Source: Planctomycetota bacterium (GTDB lineage: Bacteria > Planctomycetota > UBA8108 > UBA1146). From it: a stretch of DNA of 64,000 nucleotides. Position 1 is the stretch's first letter. The number at the start of each line of letters is the position of its first letter. Positions 27,217 to 49,288 of this stretch are shown here, one piece after another. The DNA is taken from the NCBI GenBank assembly GCA_018694835.1, contig JABHOG010000007.1, positions 5,525 to 69,524 of the forward strand, written 5' to 3'. Made by a program: the position numbers and the translations under genes. A model generated the notes under the pieces. That model ran no database searches and was not told where the DNA came from. It saw only the letters and a list, made by a program, of their open reading frames with translations.

Positions 27217-29429
27217 ACCAGATGTCCAAGTTCACCGATCGACTCACCCAGACCATGAATGAACAATCCTGGGGCGAGTACGAGGAAGCGTGGCTCGACG
27301 CCATCGAGAGTGAAGATGTTCGCTTTACCGAATATCTGCTAGCGACCAAACAGGCGATCACCGCAGGCCATGGAGAACGAGCAGGTCAAATGCTCGAACT
27401 ACTTCTTCAATCGGGTCACACCGACGAACTGTCCCCCGATAAGAAAGTGGAATTCCACGAAGCACTTGCGTGCAGCCTTCCGCGAAACAAGGACGCTCGT
27501 GGATTGTTGCTCGAGATTTACAAGTCCCAGTTCGGGCACATCGATGGATTCGACAACTGTGTCGAAACCTCTGGCCTGATGGATGGAACCCGGCCCGCCG
27601 AAATCATCCCTCTCTTCAAGAGAATGGTCCATTATCAACCGGGCTCCTATGTCAAACATCGCTCCGGCTGGGGTGTCGGCGTTGTGACGGAACTGGACCC
27701 GGGGATCGGCACCGCCACTGTAGACTTCGAGAAAAAGGAGGGGCACTCGGTAAAGTTGGAGGCGCTTCCTCAAATCTGCGATCCTCTCGACGCCGATCAC
27801 TACCTTGTGATGGGTTGGAAGCGACCGGAAGAACTACGCTCGCTGGCGGACCAAGAGCCAGCGGAGCTGATCAAACTGGTGCTGAGGACCAACAGCAAGC
27901 CGATCCCCCTCTCGAGGATCAAGGACGCGCTGAGTGGAGTTGCGGTCCCTTCCTCCTCCTGGAGCAAGTGGTGGGCCCGTGCCAAAACCGCCATCAAGAA
28001 GGACTCGCTGATTGGTCAGTCCGGCGGCAAGAACAACGAGTTATATCTTCTCGATGGACCAGAGGCTCTCACCGCCAGCATCGATCGTCGCTTTGCCCAT
28101 CTGAGTCCCGACGACCGACTCAAGGTACTTCGCGAGTGCCTCGCCGAATTACAAGAAGACGAGCACCACCTGCTCGCTCCCCAGTTCAAGTTGCTGCGTC
28201 GCGACATCTTGCGTGGCGACCTGGCACCGGCACAGCAGATTTCCGCTCTGCTCTTACTCACAGATCACGCTCCCGATGGCGACGAGGTGATGGCCATCGG
28301 TGCCCTCATCATGAAGGCGGGCCATCCGTCAGACCTGCTCAACTTGCTGGGGCGCGAAGAAGACCAGAAGGAAACCCTTGCAGTGATCCGTGGACTCGAT
28401 CCCGATCGCTGGGATTCCCTACTCGAAGAATTGTTACTGAAATCGGACGATTCACTTCGCGAACTGATCATCCAGAACTACGAAGATGCCGACCAGTTAC
28501 ACCTGGTCGACCAGGTCGGTTCCAGCGTACTCCGCCGACCGGGGAAATCGCCCCTGCTATTCCTCCATCTGGTGCGCAGATCTGCTTCCGCGGATTTCCG
28601 ATACTTTCCCTGTCTCGAGGGAGTCTCCTCGCCCGACCTGTTCCGCCAGGCGGCGGCAAGTTTCGATCGACTCTCTCTTGAAAGCGAAGTGAACAAGGAC
28701 CCTGAAATCACCACTTCGGTGAAGCGCTATCGACAGCAGCTATCGGTCAAGCCTTTTGCTCTGCTCACAAAGGTCCTGGAACGCGGCGCCCTGACTGACG
28801 CACGAGAGATCTACATGCAATTGGCGGGTTCCCGCTCCATCAGTGATTCCAACCTGGAGAAGGCCAAGGCGATCATTCTTCGCAAGTTCCCCAAGGTTCT
28901 GGCCGGCCAAGCCAGTCGCGGCAGTGCTGTGGCCCAACAATCGGCGATCTACTCGACCCAGTTCGGCATGGACAAAGTTCAGAATCAACTGACTGAAATT
29001 CGCAACGAGAAACTACCGGCGATCTTCAAGGCCATCGGAGATGCCGCTGCACTGGGTGACCTGAGCGAAAATGCAGAGTTCACATCGGCGATCGAGGAGC
29101 GCGAAAACCTCAACCGCAAGGTCATGGAACTCCAGGGAGATCTCGACCGAGCTCGCCTCATCGACCCCGAGGAGGCCAGCACCGATCAGATCGGGCTCGG
29201 TAGTAAGATCAAGTTTCATAACATTTCGACCGACTCGACATTCGAGTACTGCCTGCTAGGACCGTGGGATGGGGGCCCCGATAATGGAGTGCTCTCCTAC
29301 CTCTCACCACTCGGCAAAGCGATGCTACAGAAGAAAGAGGGCGAAGAGTTCGATGTCGAACTGCCGACCGGTGTCCACAAGGTCAAGGTTCTTGAAATCA
29401 GTCGAGGTCAGGTTCCGCAGGAGCAGTAG
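27213..29429 (+). CDS. greA: transcription elongation factor GreA, long form with ~580-aa N-terminal extension
   Basis: C-terminal Gre domain (AAALGDLSENAEF, LLGPWD, LSYLSPLGKAML). N-terminal YVKHRSGWGVGVV and WSKWW motifs resemble the long PVC/spirochaete GreA. Confidence 0.88.
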   Translation: MNQMSKFTDRLTQTMNEQSWGEYEEAWLDAIESEDVRFTEYLLATKQAITAGHGERAGQMLELLLQSGHTDELSPDKKVEFHEALACSLPRNKDARGLLLEIYKSQFGHIDGFDNCVETSGLMDGTRPAEIIPLFKRMVHYQPGSYVKHRSGWGVGVVTELDPGIGTATVDFEKKEGHSVKLEALPQICDPLDADHYLVMGWKRPEELRSLADQEPAELIKLVLRTNSKPIPLSRIKDALSGVAVPSSSWSKWWARAKTAIKKDSLIGQSGGKNNELYLLDGPEALTASIDRRFAHLSPDDRLKVLRECLAELQEDEHHLLAPQFKLLRRDILRGDLAPAQQISALLLLTDHAPDGDEVMAIGALIMKAGHPSDLLNLLGREEDQKETLAVIRGLDPDRWDSLLEELLLKSDDSLRELIIQNYEDADQLHLVDQVGSSVLRRPGKSPLLFLHLVRRSASADFRYFPCLEGVSSPDLFRQAAASFDRLSLESEVNKDPEITTSVKRYRQQLSVKPFALLTKVLERGALTDAREIYMQLAGSRSISDSNLEKAKAIILRKFPKVLAGQASRGSAVAQQSAIYSTQFGMDKVQNQLTEIRNEKLPAIFKAIGDAAALGDLSENAEFTSAIEERENLNRKVMELQGDLDRARLIDPEEASTDQIGLGSKIKFHNISTDSTFEYCLLGPWDGGPDNGVLSYLSPLGKAMLQKKEGEEFDVELPTGVHKVKVLEISRGQVPQEQ

Positions 29430-30894
29430 AAGCGTCGGTGGAACTAGCGTCGGTGGAACTAGCGTCGGTGGAACTAGCGTCGGTGGAACTAACGTCGGTG
29501 GAACTAACGTCGGTGGAACTAGCGTCGGTGGAACTAACGTCGGTGGAACTGGCGTCCGTCGAATTGGAAGCCCCCATCAATTGCTCGAGGAATACCGTGG
29601 CGAAGGCCCCAGCAGGTAAACTGAAGGAGACCAGCAGACTCTGCTCCTCCTCCTCCCAGGCGACCTGAGGCTCCCCTACCTGGATCCTTAAAGGTCGCCG
29701 TGTACCATCGAGTTTCATGCCACGAACATGAGAGAGCCAGGAACCTGGACGCAGTCCCTCTGCGATCAACACCGCACTCTCAATCCGCCCTGCTTCCCCT
29801 TCAGGCAACTTCATCTTCTTGCCGAAGATCGGCCCCGTAGGAGAGACCTCCCCGTCCCTGGCGCGCTGCTGGTCTTCGAGCCAACCCGCCTCCTCCATCG
29901 AGACATGAAATCGAGACCGTTGTCCCTCCCACTGGCAAATATCTCCGGCCCATGGCAACCAGTACCCATCCTTCGATCTCTCGAGCCGTTCCATCAGAAC
30001 CCAGTTGAACAGTTCTGCTTGGTAGGCGGAGTAGTACATCCTCCGCAATGCATGAGGGATCCTACGAGCCGCCGCACGAAGATTTCCAGGGTGAGTCTTG
30101 AGGGATGTGAGAAGAGCGGCCTCGGTGGTTCTTCCCGGAGGGAGTAGTCGCCTCGCAGCATCGATATCCCCCGCCTCATATGCGCTTCGATAATCCTCTT
30201 CGACCCCCTCGCGTGGAGCCAGCAGCAATTCCAGTGCTTCTGAAATCTGTCTTCTCAACAGTGCCGCTCCGACGCGAGCGCCATCGCCGTGCATGCCGAA
30301 TCGTTGTGGGCCATAAAAATTCGGCAACCCACCGACCGAGATCTCCTCGATCCTTTGCCTGGCACTTTCGAGTACCCCCTTGTCCACCTCACGGATCCGG
30401 ATCTCGAACTGATTGCCGGCCAGATGTCCGGTTCGAATCTTGTTTTTGTGGCGAGACACCGAGAGCACTCGGATCCAGGGGGCATCGATGGAGACCACAT
30501 CTCGATCGGTCAGGATCGGCACCGAAAAAGTCTGGGTGGTGATCGCTCGCTTGTCCTTGAAACCGGCAAATCCGATCAGTTCCCGCTTCACACCCAGAGT
30601 CCTGGCGATGTGATCGCGAGCCTGAATGGTCGTACGATTACTCTTCTCGATGGTCAGATACAGGTGCTCGCCAGCGCCGCACGGGGTGTAGAGAGGCATC
30701 TCCGTGACCTTGAAGTCCTCCCAGCGCTGGCGGATCACTCCGCCGGTCACTGCGATTTCCTGGTTCATCCTGGGCGGCTGATAACCACTCTCTTTGCGGC
30801 ACTGGAGAACCTCCGCCGGATCGACATCGAGGATTTCCAGATCATCATCTTCGGGGACTTCGGAAAGGGATTCACTCGTCTCGGACTGATTCAT
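29398..30894 (-). CDS. truD: tRNA pseudouridine(13) synthase
   Basis: Motifs EDFKVTE, GEHLYL, GFAGFKDKRAITTQ (catalytic Asp), GHLAGNQF, PNFYGPQRFG and FSLPAGAFAT. Start ATG 30894. Confidence 0.93.
   Translation of the reverse strand: MNQSETSESLSEVPEDDDLEILDVDPAEVLQCRKESGYQPPRMNQEIAVTGGVIRQRWEDFKVTEMPLYTPCGAGEHLYLTIEKSNRTTIQARDHIARTLGVKRELIGFAGFKDKRAITTQTFSVPILTDRDVVSIDAPWIRVLSVSRHKNKIRTGHLAGNQFEIRIREVDKGVLESARQRIEEISVGGLPNFYGPQRFGMHGDGARVGAALLRRQISEALELLLAPREGVEEDYRSAYEAGDIDAARRLLPPGRTTEAALLTSLKTHPGNLRAAARRIPHALRRMYYSAYQAELFNWVLMERLERSKDGYWLPWAGDICQWEGQRSRFHVSMEEAGWLEDQQRARDGEVSPTGPIFGKKMKLPEGEAGRIESAVLIAEGLRPGSWLSHVRGMKLDGTRRPLRIQVGEPQVAWEEEEQSLLVSFSLPAGAFATVFLEQLMGASNSTDASSTDVSSTDASSTDVSSTDVSSTDASSTDASSTDASSTDASTAPAEPDLD
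29431..29550. repeat. 8 x 15-bp tandem repeat A(G/A)CGTCGGTGGAACT in the truD 3' end (SSTD[A/V] units)
   Basis: Read directly from the sequence; a degenerate ninth copy lies at 29551-29565. No spacers. Confidence 0.95.
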
Positions 30895-30914
30895 CGGTTT
30901 CTGATCTCCTGTCC

Positions 30915-31616
30915 CTAGAGGGACTGCAATGGCCGGGGGGGTCCATCTCCTTCGGAGAAGACCGAAGACTCCACCACCACGGCTGGAATCCCCGAGACGA
31001 TCGTACCCGGACCCACGTCCGAGGTGATAACGGATCCGGGGAGAACTACTGCTCCTCGACCGACGAAACACCCCGCCAGCACCCTGGATCCCGCCCCCAT
31101 GAACACCTGATCGCCGATCCTCGACAGGTCATCGAGAGATGTTCCTGCCTCCAGCACACAGGCATCTCCGCAACGAGCGCCAATTCCCAGGCGAACGCCA
31201 GGCAGAAGCAGAGAAGCGGTTCCCAGCGAAGCTTCCGATTCGACGCTGCAGCCCTGGTCGATCACGACTCCCGGACCCATCCTCACATCGGCCCCGATTT
31301 TGGCCTCGGGAGAGATGATTCCGACCACCTCTGCCGCCAGTTCCTGGCAGCATCGGAGTGCTTCCCACCGTTCTGCTGGGCGCGAGAAGGCGAAGCAGAC
31401 CGCGGTCGCCCGCTGATCGAGGATGGTCGCCAGTTGGTCGAAGGATCCGACGATTTGGTGGCGCTGGAGGCCACTCTCCTCATCCCATATGACGGGGCTG
31501 TCCGATCCACTCCAGGGGATCACACCGATCAAATCCATCGAAGAATGCTGCAGCAAGGCCAGGACCCTGCGCAACTCGATCCCGTAACCCAGGACCAATA
31601 CCTTTGGCTGAACCAT
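30915..31616 (-). CDS. NeuD/PglD-like hexapeptide-repeat (left-handed beta-helix) acetyltransferase
   Basis: N-terminal Rossmann-like VLVLGYG, hexapeptide repeats (AKIGADVRMGPGVVI, SRIGDQVFMGAGSRVL) and C-terminal VSGIPA. Confidence 0.75.
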   Translation of the reverse strand: MVQPKVLVLGYGIELRRVLALLQHSSMDLIGVIPWSGSDSPVIWDEESGLQRHQIVGSFDQLATILDQRATAVCFAFSRPAERWEALRCCQELAAEVVGIISPEAKIGADVRMGPGVVIDQGCSVESEASLGTASLLLPGVRLGIGARCGDACVLEAGTSLDDLSRIGDQVFMGAGSRVLAGCFVGRGAVVLPGSVITSDVGPGTIVSGIPAVVVESSVFSEGDGPPRPLQSL

Positions 31617-32255: not shown

Positions 32256-32280
32256 CCCGCGAACATCTGTTCACCATCCT
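32252..32280 (+). promoter_or_regulatory. lexA promoter with SOS box CGAACATCTGTTCA between the -35 and -10 elements
   Basis: TTGACC (32252-32257), 17-nt spacer, CATCCT (32275-32280). GAAC-N4-GTTC at 32261-32272 lies in the spacer. Confidence 0.8.
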
Positions 32281-32333: not shown

Positions 32334-33074
32334 TTGATTCCCCCGACCGCTGATTCGTCCGATCAGAATCGTACCGATCCCACTTCTGCGGGATCCCAAT
32401 CCGCCCATCCACCGCTCACTGGCAATCGCCTGCAGGTACTGGAATTGCTGCGCCAGAGCGTGCGCCAGAACCGTCCCGCCACGGTGCGAGAGATCGCCCG
32501 GCAACTGGGGCTCTCCTCCCCCGCTTCGGTGCATCGACATCTGCGTCGCCTCGAACAGATGGGGCTGATCGAGCGAGACCCAGCAGCCGGGTCTCGCAAC
32601 TGGCAACCGATCCAGCAGCAACAACACGCCACTTCCTCATCGATCCCGGTGGTGGGACGCATCGCCGCAGGAGAGCCGATCGAAAGTGCTGGTGACGCGA
32701 CATCGAGGGCGGATGCCACCATCCCGATCGACCCCAAGACCTTTGGATCCGCTGCCACCATCGTCGCACTCCAGATCGAAGGGATGAGCATGAGAGATGC
32801 CGGCATCTTGTCGGGAGATCTCGCCATCGTGAGAAGACAGCCGACGGTAGAAAATGGTGAGATCGCCGCGGTCTCCATCGACGGCGAGGGCACTCTCAAG
32901 ATCTGGCGCGGGCCACATGAGGGTGAAGGAGTCGGTCCACAGAAAACGGTCCGCTCGGTTCGACTTGAGGCTGCGAACTGCGGATTCGAGACGATGGAGA
33001 TCGATCCTGGCCAGCATCAGGTGGAAGTGTTTGGCAAGTTGGTCGGCATCATCCGTCGCTTCGAACGACACTGA
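32334..33074 (+). CDS. lexA: SOS-response repressor/autopeptidase LexA
   Basis: wHTH PATVREIARQLGLSSPASVHRHLRRLEQMGLIERD, cleavage site GRIAAG, Ser in GMSMRDAGI and Lys in TLK. Confidence 0.95.
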   Translation: MIPPTADSSDQNRTDPTSAGSQSAHPPLTGNRLQVLELLRQSVRQNRPATVREIARQLGLSSPASVHRHLRRLEQMGLIERDPAAGSRNWQPIQQQQHATSSSIPVVGRIAAGEPIESAGDATSRADATIPIDPKTFGSAATIVALQIEGMSMRDAGILSGDLAIVRRQPTVENGEIAAVSIDGEGTLKIWRGPHEGEGVGPQKTVRSVRLEAANCGFETMEIDPGQHQVEVFGKLVGIIRRFERH

Positions 33075-33087
33075 GCGGAGCCACAGA

Positions 33088-33348
33088 ATGGAAATTCGAG
33101 AAGAAGAGATTCACGAGGCCCTCGATGAAGTGGTGGCCGCCTTTCGCGGAGGAGCCATCGAGATCCGCTCGCTGGTATGGCGTGGCCGATCTTTTGCCGT
33201 CCAGCAGATGCACGCCAGTTGGATCGACCGCTCGATTCAGCCACCGGTCCACGGTTTCACCGTCACTCTGGAAACCGACGACCTGCTGGAACTGGCCTAC
33301 CAGGAGGGCGACCTGGTCTGGCGTGTCGAGCGCTTATTCCTGCAGTGA
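33088..33348 (+). CDS. small (86 aa) ImuB-C/DUF6504-like protein
   Basis: GGAG RBS, 13 nt after the lexA stop. The pattern LVWRGRSFAV......W.....FTV......ELAY.....WRV recalls DUF6504 and the ImuB C-terminal domain (by recognition, not searched). Confidence 0.65.
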   Translation: MEIREEEIHEALDEVVAAFRGGAIEIRSLVWRGRSFAVQQMHASWIDRSIQPPVHGFTVTLETDDLLELAYQEGDLVWRVERLFLQ

Positions 33349-33371: not shown

Positions 33372-35081
33372 CTAACGAGTGGCCCCTGCCCCTCGGAAAG
33401 ATGATTCCGCCTTACCAAAAGAATCGTCCAGGTCGTGAAACTGTCCTCCCCCATCGCGAGCCACCCCTTGCAGGAACTCGCGGTTTTTGCCGTGGATCTG
33501 GCCGACCGAGAGCACATGAATGCGCGCCTGTCCCCACCGATTCCAGCGTCGGATGTGCCAGCGAAGCCGATCCCCTTGCTGGACCCGCCCCTCGGTGGGA
33601 GCACCCTCGGTGAGTAACATCACCGTATCGGTGCCCGCTTCGAGAACTGCACGGCGCAGCGGCCCGTAAAGGTTTCCTCGCGCCTCCCCGCGCCCCGAGG
33701 GAACCTCCTGTGATCCGATCTTTTTCTCCAGTGCCTTGCGGCTGCGCACCAGCGGCTGAACTCTTGGCAGTGCCGGAATACTATGACTACCGAAGTGCAC
33801 GACCTGGACCATCGCCTCACGAGGTAACTCTCCCAGCACTCGCAGTAATTCGTTCCGCGCAACATCGATGCGCCTGGCACCATCCCCACCAAAACGACCA
33901 TCCACAGTTCGCGACATCCCACCGGAGACATCGGAAAGGAAGACGATTCGAGTCGAGTCGAGCGGCACACCGTGATATCGAATCACCCGGGTGCCCTGGG
34001 TCGGGTCATCGGTATCCTCCGCTCGATCGCCGGCTCCGGTCTGCTCCTCGGCAGCGCCCCCCTCCACCCAGCTCTTACGATGGGCCTTCCACCATGAATC
34101 CCACGAACTGAAACTCGAGCCGATGGGAGAACCCTGATCTGGCATCTCGGTGATGAGTTGCAAGGTCGGCCAGAGTCGTGCCAGGGTCGAGCCCTCCAAC
34201 GTGGAGGCCAAAGGGATCAGCCCGTCGATCAATTCCGCTCGACGACCACGAGGCAAAGCCCGCCCCTCCACTGCCAGGATCTCGAGGCCAGCCCGACGAA
34301 TCCGTTCGCCCCAGATCCCTTGCCGATCCTTCCAACGATCGGTCACCGCCTCATAGGCCGCGCGACATCCCCGTTCGAGGTCCACCACCACCAGTCCCTG
34401 CAGGGCGGCGATGCGCAGTGCTGGCAACTTCTTCTCGGTCAATCGCCGTTCCAGTAGTGCCCTGGCGGCCTCGCCATCGATGACCGCCAACGTGCGCAGC
34501 GCTTCTCCCTGGACAAACCATGGAGACCCCCTCTTCGCCTGCTGCGTCACCAACTCGATCATTTTCTTGTCGTGTGCTGAACTCGGTAGTGCTGCCAGTG
34601 CACCGAGGGCCATCTCCCGTGCATCGGCGGAGGAAGATCGGCGGACCACCGCCAGTAACTCGCTCTTCAACTCGGCATCGGGCTGCTGGAGGAAGATTTC
34701 CGCCAGGATCTCATCGAGCCCCAGCGCTGTTCGATCGTTCGGCTTCGTCTGACCAAAGCCTACTCTCAAGGCTCGGCGCTGCTCGACACTCCACTGCTCG
34801 ACGATCTGGCCAAAGACCTGATCGCGGACGGTTCCAGAAGGATCGCGCAGCAGTTCCAGCACCTGCTCCACGTCGCCGGGCCCCTGATCCACCCGAAGCC
34901 GTGCATCTCGAGCGGCATTTCGTTGTTTCTCGACCGATCGCTGGAGATCGACCCGTTCGGTCGGAGGTTGTGGAATCTGCGCTGCGACTGCGCTGGTCCA
35001 GCAGAGCGCCACGATCGTCAGAGCCGTCGACCATCTGGGGCTCCCCCCGAGGCACCCACCGAGGCACCCGCCGATGCCCAT
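33372..35081 (-). CDS. exported HEAT-repeat protein with C-terminal von Willebrand A domain
   Basis: HEAT-like helices (AREMALGALAAL, VQGEALRTLA, LRIAALQGL). vWA motifs IVFLSDVSGGM, VMLLTEGAPTEG and FLQGVARDGGGQF. Start uncertain (35081 or 35141). Confidence 0.75.
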   Translation of the reverse strand: MGIGGCLGGCLGGSPRWSTALTIVALCWTSAVAAQIPQPPTERVDLQRSVEKQRNAARDARLRVDQGPGDVEQVLELLRDPSGTVRDQVFGQIVEQWSVEQRRALRVGFGQTKPNDRTALGLDEILAEIFLQQPDAELKSELLAVVRRSSSADAREMALGALAALPSSAHDKKMIELVTQQAKRGSPWFVQGEALRTLAVIDGEAARALLERRLTEKKLPALRIAALQGLVVVDLERGCRAAYEAVTDRWKDRQGIWGERIRRAGLEILAVEGRALPRGRRAELIDGLIPLASTLEGSTLARLWPTLQLITEMPDQGSPIGSSFSSWDSWWKAHRKSWVEGGAAEEQTGAGDRAEDTDDPTQGTRVIRYHGVPLDSTRIVFLSDVSGGMSRTVDGRFGGDGARRIDVARNELLRVLGELPREAMVQVVHFGSHSIPALPRVQPLVRSRKALEKKIGSQEVPSGRGEARGNLYGPLRRAVLEAGTDTVMLLTEGAPTEGRVQQGDRLRWHIRRWNRWGQARIHVLSVGQIHGKNREFLQGVARDGGGQFHDLDDSFGKAESSFRGAGATR

Positions 35082-35108
35082 CCGGCGGATCCAGCACCAG
35101 AGTTGTGG

Positions 35109-35122
35109 CGAACATCTGCTCG
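35109..35122. promoter_or_regulatory. candidate third SOS box CGAACATCTGCTCG (one mismatch)
   Basis: Shares GCGAACATCTG with the lexA and dinB boxes; lies about 28 nt upstream of ATG 35081 of the HEAT-vWA gene. Confidence 0.45.
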
Positions 35123-35173
35123 AGAGAGGCTTGGTTACCATCGAGGGCACCCTTTCAATACAGACCCTGCAAA

Positions 35174-35243
35174 TCGACAAGGCTCGACAAGGCTCGACAA
35201 GGATCGACAAGGATCGACAAGGATCGACAAGGATCGACAAGGC
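35174..35243. repeat. 7 x 10-bp tandem repeat TCGACAAGG(C/A) in a divergent intergenic region
   Basis: Read directly from the sequence; copies start every 10 bp from 35174 to 35234. Confidence 0.95.
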
Positions 35244-35401
35244 ACTGCAATTCGTCGAGGAACTGCTCTACCGAACCGAATGATAAATGGATCTTGCGGC
35301 GGTGCCAGTACTACAGAATCCGTTACCGGACACCTTCAAGAGGAGGGCTCGATGGTCCATGCTGCAGCCATGGGTCGAAAGCGACCCGGAAGGAGCGGTC
35401 G

Positions 35402-47886: not shown

Positions 47887-47908
47887 GCGAACAGATGTTC
47901 GCTATCCT
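47887..47908 (+). promoter_or_regulatory. SOS box GCGAACAGATGTTCGC abutting a TATCCT -10 element upstream of the Y-family polymerase
   Basis: Perfect 6-bp arms GCGAAC-N4-GTTCGC at 47887-47902 and TATCCT at 47903-47908; same box-to--10 geometry as at lexA. Confidence 0.82.
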
Positions 47909-47962: not shown

Positions 47963-49288
47963 GTGTCGACCCCGTTCTCTCCCTCCATCTCTCCCTCCAT
48001 CTCTCCCTCGATGACTCCTCGCCCGCTGATCCTCCACCTCGACATCGATGCCTTCTTCGCCTCGGTCGAACAGTTGCGGAATCCGCGACTCGCCGGACAG
48101 CCGGTGGCCGTCGGCAGTGGAGTCATCGCTTCCTGTTCGTACGAAGCGAGGGAGCACGGGTTGAAGGCGGGGATGCCACTCGGCCAGGCGCTCCGAAAAT
48201 GTCCACCACTGGTGATCGTACGTGGTCACGAATCGATCTACCGCTGTTACGCCACTCGAATGTTCGAGATCTGCCACAACTGGTCGCCACTGGTGGAAGA
48301 GCACCTCGACGAAGCGTACTGCGATCTGACTGGAACCGAACGAATCTATCCGGACCCCGCCAAAGAAATCGCCCGGCTACGCGCCCAGATTCATTCCACG
48401 ACCGGACTGACCGTCACGGCGGGACTCGGTCGTAACCGGATGTTCGCTCGACTCATCGGCAAGTTTCATAAACCGGACGGGCTCGGCTATCTGGAGCCGG
48501 AACAAGAGGAAGCCTTGCTCCTACGATTACCGGTGGAGAACTTACCCGGGGTGGGTCCTCGTACCGTAGAGATCCTCGCGAATCTCGGCATCGAGAAGGT
48601 TGAACAATTGCGCGAGCTCTCGCGCTCGGCTCTCGCCGGACTCCTCGGGCGAAACGGTGAGGCCCTGTACGAGCGCTGCCGAGGCGAAGATCATCGGCCC
48701 CTCGGTGGTCGCGAGATTCCACGATCGATCCAGCGTGGGACCTCCTTCGACGAGGACGTCTCCTGCCCTCGCACTCTCGATGCGATGATCGAATATCTGG
48801 CAGAACGAGCCGCCAGGAACCTGCGTCAGAGAGGCCTGGAAGCGGGAGGGATTTCGCTCCAGATTGCTCATAGTGATCACCGCCGCGATCGTCGCCGCAT
48901 CGTGCTGTCCCCTCCCACCGCCCTCGACCCTTCCATCATCCGGACCGCTCTGGCACTGCGCCGCTCGATGGAGGGGCGTCGCACCGCCATCCGCTTCGTC
49001 GGGATCCAGCTCGACCGCATCCGCCTCGCCGCCACATTTCAGCAGGGAGACCTGTTCGCCACCGATCTCGACACCCCACAGACAGATCCACAGACAAATC
49101 AGCGCTGGAAACGGATCCTCGAGCAAGTCGATCAAATCCGCATGCGCCACGGCCATGGAGCCTTACTTCGAGGCAGCGCCCTGGCGCTACAGTGCGGCGA
49201 CAACAGTGACGCCGAGAAAAGGGGCCGTGTCGGTCTCGAACGAGATCGACACGGACTCATCCTGCGCACCTCGTGCCTGACCCGCTGA
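47963..49288 (+). CDS. dinB: Y-family translesion DNA polymerase (Pol IV/DinB-like) with clamp motif and RecA-NT-like tail
   Basis: Motifs LHLDIDAFFASVE, SYEAR..G.KAGM, HLDEAYCD, HKPDG, LPGVG and QQGDLF. Start GTG 47963 (AAAGGA RBS) or ATG 48011. Confidence 0.9.
   Translation: MSTPFSPSISPSISPSMTPRPLILHLDIDAFFASVEQLRNPRLAGQPVAVGSGVIASCSYEAREHGLKAGMPLGQALRKCPPLVIVRGHESIYRCYATRMFEICHNWSPLVEEHLDEAYCDLTGTERIYPDPAKEIARLRAQIHSTTGLTVTAGLGRNRMFARLIGKFHKPDGLGYLEPEQEEALLLRLPVENLPGVGPRTVEILANLGIEKVEQLRELSRSALAGLLGRNGEALYERCRGEDHRPLGGREIPRSIQRGTSFDEDVSCPRTLDAMIEYLAERAARNLRQRGLEAGGISLQIAHSDHRRDRRRIVLSPPTALDPSIIRTALALRRSMEGRRTAIRFVGIQLDRIRLAATFQQGDLFATDLDTPQTDPQTNQRWKRILEQVDQIRMRHGHGALLRGSALALQCGDNSDAEKRGRVGLERDRHGLILRTSCLTR
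47977..48012 (+). repeat. 3 x 12-bp tandem repeat CTCTCCCTC(C/G)AT at the dinB 5' end
   Basis: Read directly from the sequence; encodes SPSI-SPSI-SPSM if the start is 47963. Confidence 0.85.

Follow-up and report, generated by a model that had tools for sequence, protein, structure and literature searches.

A likely stand-alone ImuB-C protein encoded behind lexA in a planctomycete, a probable subunit of a dispersed LexA-controlled translesion module

Here, the 86-aa product of an open reading frame (ORF) directly behind lexA in a 64,000-nt stretch of planctomycete DNA (the window) is reported as, probably, a stand-alone ImuB-C protein that acts as the non-catalytic subunit of a LexA-controlled translesion module together with PolY and DnaE2. 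ImuB-C is a known kind of accessory protein, and the locus therefore adds an instance to a system already described rather than revealing a novel one. Its novelty is modest and lies in a planctomycete set of PolY, ImuB-C and DnaE2 that is spread over three LexA-box units, with a second LexA paralogue in the genome. The picture of SOS mutagenesis is unchanged and a known class is filled in.

The imuB-C gene, its family and its fold

The ORF opens with an ATG at 33088 and extends over 86 codons to a TGA at 33346-33348, and the stop codon of lexA (33072-33074) leaves a 13-nt gap that holds a putative GGAG ribosome-binding site (Table 1). Both the coordinates and the spacing agree with the sequence-only reading of this DNA, and the ORF is conserved in 76 of the 401 phylum genomes sampled. 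Chance ORFs are plentiful in this G+C-rich DNA (70 ORFs of at least 40 aa in 6.5 kb). The 86-aa ORF is regarded as a true gene because 59 cluster representatives match it at E <= 1e-3 in a library of 1.84 billion proteins, nearly all of them 80-130 aa long, because of its recurrence in those 76 genomes, because its structure model reaches a mean pLDDT of 96.2, and because its differences from a 95%-alike RNA-library contig are biased towards third codon positions (10 of 12, the other two being I/V exchanges). Eight close homologues have lengths of 66-87 aa, one of them from a source record labelled Planctomycetota bacterium. The phylum genomes were searched with the profile of a 57-sequence alignment, made up of the query and 56 representatives after removal of a fragment (P0009) and of two long repetitive proteins with short partial matches only (P0042 and P0055), and the same search found imuB-C in 11/11 other genomes of the window's own family.

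Table 1. Coordinates of the lexA-imuB-C, polY and dnaE2 units and their operators (window positions unless a contig or locus is named)
Feature	Position	Strand	Remarks
LexA-type operator GAACATCTGTTC	32261..32272	.	62 nt upstream of lexA start; exact GAAC-N4-GTTC
lexA, apparent cassette-type LexA paralogue	32334..33074	+	246 aa, TTG start
GGAG, putative ribosome-binding site	33077..33080	+	7 nt ahead of imuB-C ATG; read off the sequence
imuB-C, likely stand-alone ImuB-C/DUF6504 protein	33088..33348	+	86 aa, ATG start, all-beta model
LexA-type operator GAACAGATGTTC	47889..47900	.	63 nt upstream of polY; exact reverse complement of lexA box
polY, apparently active Y-family polymerase	47963..49288	+	441 aa, GTG start
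LexA-type operator, identical 12 nt	L006:588-599	.	43 nt upstream of dnaE2 start (GTG at 643)
dnaE2	G000:C94:83845-86994, outside window		45 kb downstream of imuB-C, same contig; 1049 aa, GTG behind GAGG

The upstream gene is assigned to LexA by profile TIGR00498 (147 bits, cut-off 111; E 4.9e-43), and its product has the domains LexA_DNA_bind and Peptidase_S24. Parts of the stretch are present among RNA-library contigs of four runs, and the lexA/imuB-C junction is spanned by two of these contigs, which come from two studies and measure 782 nt (32619-33344, about 95% alike) and 193 nt (32954-33146); this is a hint of expression and no proof of a transcript.

The WRGR...W...F.V...EL...W pattern that had been read off the translation is present as W31-R32-G33-R34, W45, F57, E68-L69 and W78. 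W45 and W78 are near-invariant among the 57 aligned sequences, and R32 and R34 are invariant in close relatives. The protein itself matches the Pfam family DUF6504 (PF20114) below the cut-off (E 0.0053, 17.4 bits against 24.2) over residues 27-49 only, i.e. 23 residues, and an NCBIfam search gave no match. Among its relatives the best DUF6504 match reaches E 6.3e-8 (threshold E <= 0.01), and a neighbour cluster named DUF6504 ranked third in a protein atlas with a score of 0.90.

A canonical ImuB from an imuA-imuB-dnaE2 cassette on a Paracoccus plasmid served as reference; this 502-aa protein has IMS and IMS_C domains and matches DUF6504 at 425-499, in its last 75 residues, again under the cut-off (E 2.7e-4). 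PF20114 appears in the precomputed annotation of 6 of the 120 ImuB-type proteins listed, one of which its source names ImuB, and the name is also carried by four further proteins of the 120. The last 105 residues of those at least 490 aa long (76 proteins) were aligned with the ImuB-C family in hhalign, and the two profiles match over 72 columns up to the C-terminus in a register that makes the W-R-G, W and final W positions coincide. Meanwhile, hmmsearch with the family HMM against the 120 alpha-proteobacterial ImuB proteins gave one weak match (7.4 bits), and the family profile found no longer fused form at E <= 0.001 among 7999 scored candidates, which is weak evidence. Seeming 'fused' matches in frames of 419-452 aa in another family were set aside after the one opened proved to be the C-terminus of a SLAC1/TehA-type channel and not ImuB.

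Since the direct matches are weak and no fused form was found, homology with ImuB-C depends on transitive profile matches and on the literature, where the link drawn by Aravind et al. was likewise of marginal significance (1e-4 to 1e-5; PMC3765255). According to the same paper, ImuB-C domains are small and mainly beta and conserve both a tryptophan near the C-terminus and several basic residues; the window protein fits these traits with seven strands, the near-invariant W78, and R32 and R34, which are invariant in close relatives. By sequence criteria the 86-aa protein is likely a member of the ImuB-C superfamily, and the earlier assignment to an ImuB-C/DUF6504 kind is supported by the DUF6504 matches in 43 of the 57 aligned relatives and by the hhalign result (E 4.4e-4, probability 33%).

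The AlphaFold2 model, built from the 57-sequence alignment, has a pTM of 0.84 and consists of seven beta strands. When the family profile was run against the sequences of solved structures, nothing credible emerged (best E 0.069); Foldseek found no match in the PDB at E <= 0.001, and comparison with 48,161 chains in VIA-align returned at best a Z of 5.9, to cystatin-like and generic sheets, in a range considered common. An SH3-like barrel was not recovered in the VIA-align comparison, and neither this nor Foldseek returned a DNA-binding fold. The model is assigned to no known fold. The absence of a PDB neighbour accords with the description of ImuB-C as a beta-barrel of novel fold in PMC12926913, and a literature search (ImuB, DnaE2, cryo-EM) found no solved structure of ImuB. 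The kinship with ImuB C-termini proposed from the sequence is supported in part, with no structural match in the PDB and a profile link that is weak but congruent.

Three units behind one LexA-type operator

The genome (3.13 Mb in 149 contigs, 95% complete) places lexA-imuB-C, polY and dnaE2 in three separate units that each have the same LexA-type box at the start (Table 1). The box upstream of lexA backs the earlier proposal that the ORF is probably SOS-induced; the Y-family polymerase that had been named as co-regulated has the same box, and the DnaE2 suspected to be encoded elsewhere was found behind the same box on the same contig. The motif GAAC-N4-GTTC occurs four times in the window against 1.2 expected, and polY and dnaE2 have in common a 25-nt stretch around the box. 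In the whole genome there are five exact copies of the 12-nt box; those at C79:69586 and C118:2592 were rejected as operators and taken as chance because they lie within long frames (702 and 526 aa). A GAAC-N4-GTTC about 400 nt upstream of recA (C97:72660) was also rejected, being unlike the operator at less than 14 bits.

The box is retained across the window's family. With the window's own genome included, it precedes lexA in 11 of 12 loci (the twelfth, L023, ends at a contig end), polY at about -60 in 12 of 14 (the other two have less than 60 nt of upstream DNA) and dnaE2 in 15 of 19 (three of the remainder are without upstream DNA and one is a partial gene). A position weight matrix (PWM) from 35 sites in relatives, the own genome excluded, finds six sites of at least 14 bits in the 3.13-Mb genome, and the top three are those of polY (35.8), dnaE2 (33.7) and lexA (19.7). 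Further, more degenerate LexA sites may exist in the genome, because the matrix was trained on the lexA, polY and dnaE2 classes only. Neither the lexA nor the polY operator showed a sigma-70-like promoter in a simple scan, and scans for promoters and terminators at these operators and after the imuB-C ORF gave nothing relevant. The arrangement amounts to a naturally 'split operon', whose three separate promoters allow co-regulation through a single conserved operator to be tested.

The product of polY is a Y-family polymerase by its IMS domain (E 1.6e-38), scores about 250 bits with DNA polymerase IV models, all below their cut-offs, and is 40-51% identical to the polY products encoded 3' of imuB-C in other families. 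It carries the motifs DIDAFF and LDEAY, with D27, D29 and D116 invariant in 28 sequences and E117 present; by comparison with Dpo4/DinB these four residues are taken to be catalytic, and judged by motif the active site is apparently intact. Towards its C-terminus a QGDLF clamp motif is followed by a conserved block (D390/R393/G397) that, aligned by eye with the N-terminus of the genome's own RecA, agrees with it at 4 of 22 residues and is similar at 5 more, a resemblance of motifs and no statistical result. A conserved C-terminal tail (...ILRTSCLTR) is present in 21 of the 28 aligned PolY sequences; the remaining 7, a subgroup at about 30% identity, lack it or have another ending.

The gene lies about 14.6 kb beyond imuB-C on the window's contig. 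The products of the interval (14.4 kb) are a VWA/HEAT protein, an acyl-CoA dehydrogenase, an MMPL transporter, DUF1329 and DUF1302 proteins, a short-chain dehydrogenase and an enoyl-CoA hydratase, none of them SOS-related. In seven genomes of the family the two genes share a contig at a distance of 9-15 kb. Orthologues of PolY (56-97% identity) and of DnaE2 (54-96%) are each found in 18 of the 20 other genomes of the family.

The genome has two DnaE genes, one in a 1306-aa frame on C147 and the dnaE2 on the window's contig. The product of the latter aligns end to end with the 'error-prone DNA polymerase' model NF004225 at 546 bits, below the cut-off of 939, and locally with the DnaE1 model at 562 bits; among its best plasmid matches, 11 of the 12 listed are annotated as error-prone polymerase. 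Beyond polY, which keeps the catalytic motifs, the only other IMS-domain gene is a paralogue in a 428-aa frame on contig C32, and no gene was recognised as imuB. A search of the 95%-complete assembly for ImuA with NF033429, a model that stayed under its cut-off in 14/14 control genomes, returned RecA only and a 14-bit match. All S24 matches of the genome above the cut-off of the LexA model are LexA-type; with ImuA and ImuB also not found, this agrees with the proposal of a module without umuD or imuA.

A second LexA (C46:28-756, 242 aa, TIGR00498 147 bits) is 28% identical to that of the window. Two LexA proteins are encoded in 17 of the 20 other genomes of the window's family, and among five operon-bearing genomes of other families three have two and two have one; of five ImuB-C-negative genomes, three encode a single LexA and two encode none. 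In Pseudomonas putida, the paralogue LexA2 is tied to a mutagenesis cassette. Given the copy-number pattern, the window LexA looks, on sequence grounds, like a cassette-type paralogue.

Operons elsewhere in the phylum and the partners of ImuB-C

The 30 best imuB-C loci were scanned by tblastn with the window's LexA and PolY over flanks of 1.5 kb. Outside the window's family, polY lies 3' of imuB-C on the same strand in 18/18 loci and lexA lies 5' of it in 10. In the other loci of the window's family, lexA is directly 5' of imuB-C in 10 of 11 (L023 is cut by the contig end) and polY is 3' of it in none of the 11. Such surroundings, in which lexA and a Y-family polymerase gene and/or dnaE2 adjoin the gene, match the context of the ImuB-C superfamily. 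That imuB-C has remained right behind lexA in the family while polY has moved elsewhere would be explained if ImuB-C acted on LexA, for instance by modulating its cleavage or its binding to DNA. This role is hardly credible, since imuB-C-polY occurs without a lexA match in 8 of the 18 outside loci (within at most 1.5 kb of upstream DNA, just 447 nt for L030), since lexA is likewise missing from the 2.2 kb upstream of L074, and since the complex model described below favours PolY as the partner.

DnaE2 was searched for with the window genome's second DnaE as query. At E <= 1e-130, a DnaE2-like gene is present in 63 of the 401 phylum genomes, with a match in 27/76 ImuB-C-positive against 36/325 ImuB-C-negative genomes, counts in which related genomes are non-independent samples. 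DnaE2 was found in only these 27 of the 76 ImuB-C-positive genomes and in G014, whose dnaE2 the search had missed, and is therefore not a universal partner. Canonical ImuB was also sought beside the DnaE2-like genes of ImuB-C-negative genomes of the phylum; one such locus has polY-dnaE2 without ImuB-C, and in another dnaE2 adjoins the gene of an RRM protein.

Eight dnaE2 loci were fetched, seven of them chosen for a dnaE2 on the imuB-C contig, plus G014. In 8/8 of these, seven being preselected for a same-contig dnaE2, the order is imuB-C-polY-dnaE2 in one direction; lexA leads the operon in 6 of the 7 preselected loci, all except L074, and none was found upstream of the G014 operon. The association of homologues with lexA, polY and dnaE2, on which the sequence-only reading depended, is therefore observed: polY in 18/18 and lexA in 10/18 loci outside the family, and dnaE2 in the eight fetched loci. 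In genomes outside the family whose PolY bears the C-terminal tail, DnaE2 is present in 11/11 and on the same contig as polY in 9, while among the seven genomes with tail-less PolY only G013 has a DnaE2-like gene, on a different contig. This co-occurrence of tail and DnaE2 may simply be common ancestry.

ImuB-C might instead serve PolY alone, as in the Geobacter-type lexA-imuB-C-polY operon, with DnaE2 as a separate LexA-controlled polymerase outside the complex. The 49 of 76 ImuB-C-positive genomes without a DnaE2-like match at E <= 1e-130 are in line with such an arrangement, as are three fetched loci of the second PolY subgroup in which the operon stops after polY, and PolY is the sole contact that was tested and supported in the models. 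It is nonetheless improbable: in the eight fetched loci polY and dnaE2 are immediate neighbours in one orientation, with dnaE2 second, the 25-nt operator stretch is common to polY and dnaE2 here, the tail-bearing PolY subgroup is the one that occurs with DnaE2, and published models set ImuB-C against the PHP domain of DnaE2, according to the text of PMC12926913.

A two-chain model of PolY with ImuB-C scored 0.74, 0.75 and 0.74 against 0.00 in all three controls. The score passes a mark that 116 of 157 solved complexes but just 2 of 215 mismatched pairs attain, counts that are only rough here because custom alignments were used. At least 85% of contacts recur between runs, with a partner pLDDT of at least 88, and the score is unlikely to reflect a memorised structure because no solved complex of such a kind was found. 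On ImuB-C the predicted interface comprises residues 1-3, 5, 40, 42-43, 45-49, 58, 60, 66, 68, 84 and 86 and covers the most conserved block; on PolY it comprises residues 35, 38-43, 83-87, 91-92, 94-96 and 98-99, presumably the fingers side by homology to Dpo4. The C-terminal tail of PolY lies outside the named interface. The modelling supports binding of ImuB-C to PolY, and the partnership with the Y-family polymerase that had been guessed from the sequence gains from it as well as from the single operon seen in other genomes of the phylum. The interface is testable, namely the ImuB-C block around W45 against PolY residues 38-43 and 91-99.

Following Aravind et al., ImuB-C could also be mainly a sensor of DNA lesions or DNA structure that recruits repair proteins and is no fixed polymerase subunit. 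Their text places stand-alone ImuB-C also beside genes for Ku/ligase, SplB photolyase and SRAP and points to conserved basic residues (PMC3765255), and the invariance of R32 and R34 in close relatives fits this. Such a role is quite unlikely for the window protein, given that polY is paired with imuB-C in all 18 outside loci, that the conserved block M41-R48 sits in a predicted protein-protein interface, and that the structure comparisons found no DNA-binding fold. The roles of sensor and of polymerase subunit are mutually compatible.

The preferred reading remains that of a PolY, ImuB-C and DnaE2 module, for which the following course is proposed. DNA damage leads to activation of RecA and to self-cleavage of LexA. 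In the planctomycete, damage would activate RecA and the LexA would cleave itself, upon which the lexA-imuB-C, polY and dnaE2 units, with their observed common operator, would be derepressed. The conserved block M41-R48 of ImuB-C (around W45) would dock on the fingers side of PolY at predicted residues 35-43 and 83-99. PolY would recruit the beta-clamp via QGDLF and RecA via the RecA-NT-like motif, as its motifs and the literature suggest, and DnaE2 would join, to judge from the operon-encoded modules of other planctomycetes. The phylum ancestor would have had a single operon, [lexA]-imuB-C-polY-dnaE2, which in the window's family would have been broken into three pieces, the operator being retained by each.

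A more specific proposal, which is considered doubtful, is that one of the LexA paralogues is dedicated to a very small regulon consisting of the dispersed mutasome only, with ImuB-C on the PolY fingers, the PolY tail docking DnaE2, and two active polymerases. If true, it would be the first such composition outside the Actinobacteria and a snapshot of operon scattering in which the operator is kept.

Relation to described systems

The sequence-only reading had offered the locus as its best candidate for an undescribed system, a claim that falls before reports from 2013 (PMC3765255), 2019 (PMC6511836), 2021 (PMC8072749) and 2026 (PMC12926913). Stand-alone ImuB-C linked to lexA, a DinB-type PolY and DnaE2 was reported by Aravind in 2013; Timinskas and Venclovas in 2019 described lexA-imuB-C-polY in Geobacter and a PolY group that is shared with Planctomycetes; the 2021 paper described lexA-imuY-imuB-C-dnaE2 in Deinococcus; and in 2026 Timinskas and Venclovas set out eleven module types including DnaE2-[ImuB-C]-PolY-RecA. 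The role of stand-alone ImuB-C is put as an open question in PMC8072749. A literature search returned no paper with the word DUF6504, nor any account of the four-gene operon of planctomycetes, whether intact or dispersed; the supplement of PMC12926913, searched by term only, may list planctomycete partners.

The operator of Geobacter LexA differs from the GAAC-N4-GTTC operator found here. The lexA-imuB-C(GSU0042-like)-polY locus of Geobacter sulfurreducens ('GeoPolY-like') has much in common with the one here: according to PMC6511836 it has a small stand-alone ImuB-C right behind lexA and a PolY that is apparently active and carries a RecA-NT-like motif, without ImuA, and the hosts of the 'GeoPolY-like' group include Planctomycetes. 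Geobacter also has two lexA genes, by a title cited in the same paper, as does the window genome. The window genome differs in that polY lies 14.6 kb off in a LexA-box unit of its own and in that the set also includes a dnaE2 behind a LexA box.

The canonical ImuA-ImuB-DnaE2 mutasome of mycobacteria, Caulobacter and Pseudomonas is likewise under LexA control and includes DnaE2 and a Y-family scaffold with clamp and RecA-NT motifs. That mutasome depends on ImuA and carries its ImuB-C domain as part of a catalytically dead polymerase, whereas here ImuB-C is a separate protein, PolY is apparently active and ImuA was not found.

By composition, the locus is likened to the DnaE2B-[ImuB-C]-PolY-RecA module of, for example, Tessaracoccus lapidicaptus, which has an active PolY with RecA-NT, a stand-alone ImuB-C and DnaE2 (PMC12926913). 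Genomes with the Tessaracoccus-type module have no ImuA or ImuB, and the search of the 95%-complete assembly found neither. The host phylum is Actinobacteria there and Planctomycetota here; the main text of PMC12926913 gives DnaE2-[ImuB-C]-PolY-RecA for Actinobacteria only, and the composition of active PolY, ImuB-C and DnaE2 now extends to a second phylum.

The Deinococcus system shares LexA control, a stand-alone ImuB-C (80 residues there), a Y-family protein and DnaE2, without ImuA (PMC8072749), and it is the only variant for which experimental SOS-mutagenesis data are known. Its ImuY is predicted there to be catalytically dead, whereas PolY here keeps D27, D29, D116 and E117. The gene order differs as well, being lexA-imuY-imuB-C-dnaE2 in Deinococcus as that paper gives it and lexA-imuB-C-polY-dnaE2 in planctomycetes, with the genes dispersed in the window's family.

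PolY LDE-motif variation and a possible further dnaE2 cassette

An alignment of 28 Y-family polymerases linked to ImuB-C (A3) revealed substitution in the LDE motif, where the second residue is Asp instead of Glu in five sequences (from loci L074, L009, L008, L031 and L015), and each of these five variants comes from an operon that also carries dnaE2. With this Glu to Asp exchange, these polymerases could be on the way to the dead state of ImuB/ImuY. Among plasmids, the best match to the DnaE2 of the window's genome is on NZ_AP021877.1 of Desulfosarcina ovata (locus L085), within an array annotated as lexA, a DUF72 protein, a 376-aa hypothetical protein and 'DNA polymerase III subunit alpha', which may be another DnaE2 cassette without ImuA.

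LexA paralogues and a further operator-like site

The window's genome encodes a second LexA paralogue of 242 aa on contig C46, sharing 28% identity with the window's LexA, and no GAAC-N4-GTTC box was found in the approximately 200 nt upstream of it. Among the 20 other genomes of the same taxonomic family, 17 likewise have two LexAs. Within that family, G401 (82% complete) is the sole genome in which a search for a PolY ortholog, a DnaE2 ortholog and any LexA found none of the three, reflecting either assembly gaps or loss of the whole module.

Scanning with the position weight matrix placed a further operator-like site, at window positions 35105-35126, fourth in the genome (16.3 bits, core with one mismatch). 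The site falls inside the first 45 codons of a long minus-strand frame for a VWA/HEAT protein (33372-35240); it would instead be just upstream of this gene if translation starts at a later Met, which precedes a signal-peptide-like stretch.

ImuB-C-like sequence on other proteins

At locus L079, a SLAC1/TehA-type anion channel ends in ~60 residues that match the ImuB-C family profile over positions 32-92 (E ~1e-4 to 1e-5), and matches of the same kind occur in about eight genomes, all belonging to a different family from that of the window. For the end of the channel, this is either a chance resemblance or a sign that a membrane protein carries a remote copy of the ImuB-C domain. Separately, P0013, a member of the ImuB-C family, is fused at its N-terminus to an ArsR-type HTH domain (HTH_5, E 2.3e-12), and its ImuB-C part starts mid-domain.

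Repeats

Coordinates of the paralogue, the channel and three short tandem DNA repeats
Feature	Location	Strand	Remarks
Second LexA paralogue	G000:C46:28-756 (= L092:28-756), outside window	minus	TIGR00498, 147 bits
SLAC1/TehA-type anion channel	L079:6220-7476	minus	Pfam, residues 14-336 of 418
15-nt unit x3	L006:480-530		Upstream of dnaE2 operator, before promoter region
Repeated SPSIS coding unit	window 47975-48010		PolY N-terminus, polY start
Unit reading QGSTRIDKDR	window ~35170-35260		Spacer before acyl-CoA dehydrogenase gene

Repetition is also seen at the protein level in the window, where the frame for a TruD pseudouridine synthase (29398-31071, minus strand) ends in approximately ten tandem Ser/Thr/Asp-rich units of five residues (SSTDA/SSTDV).
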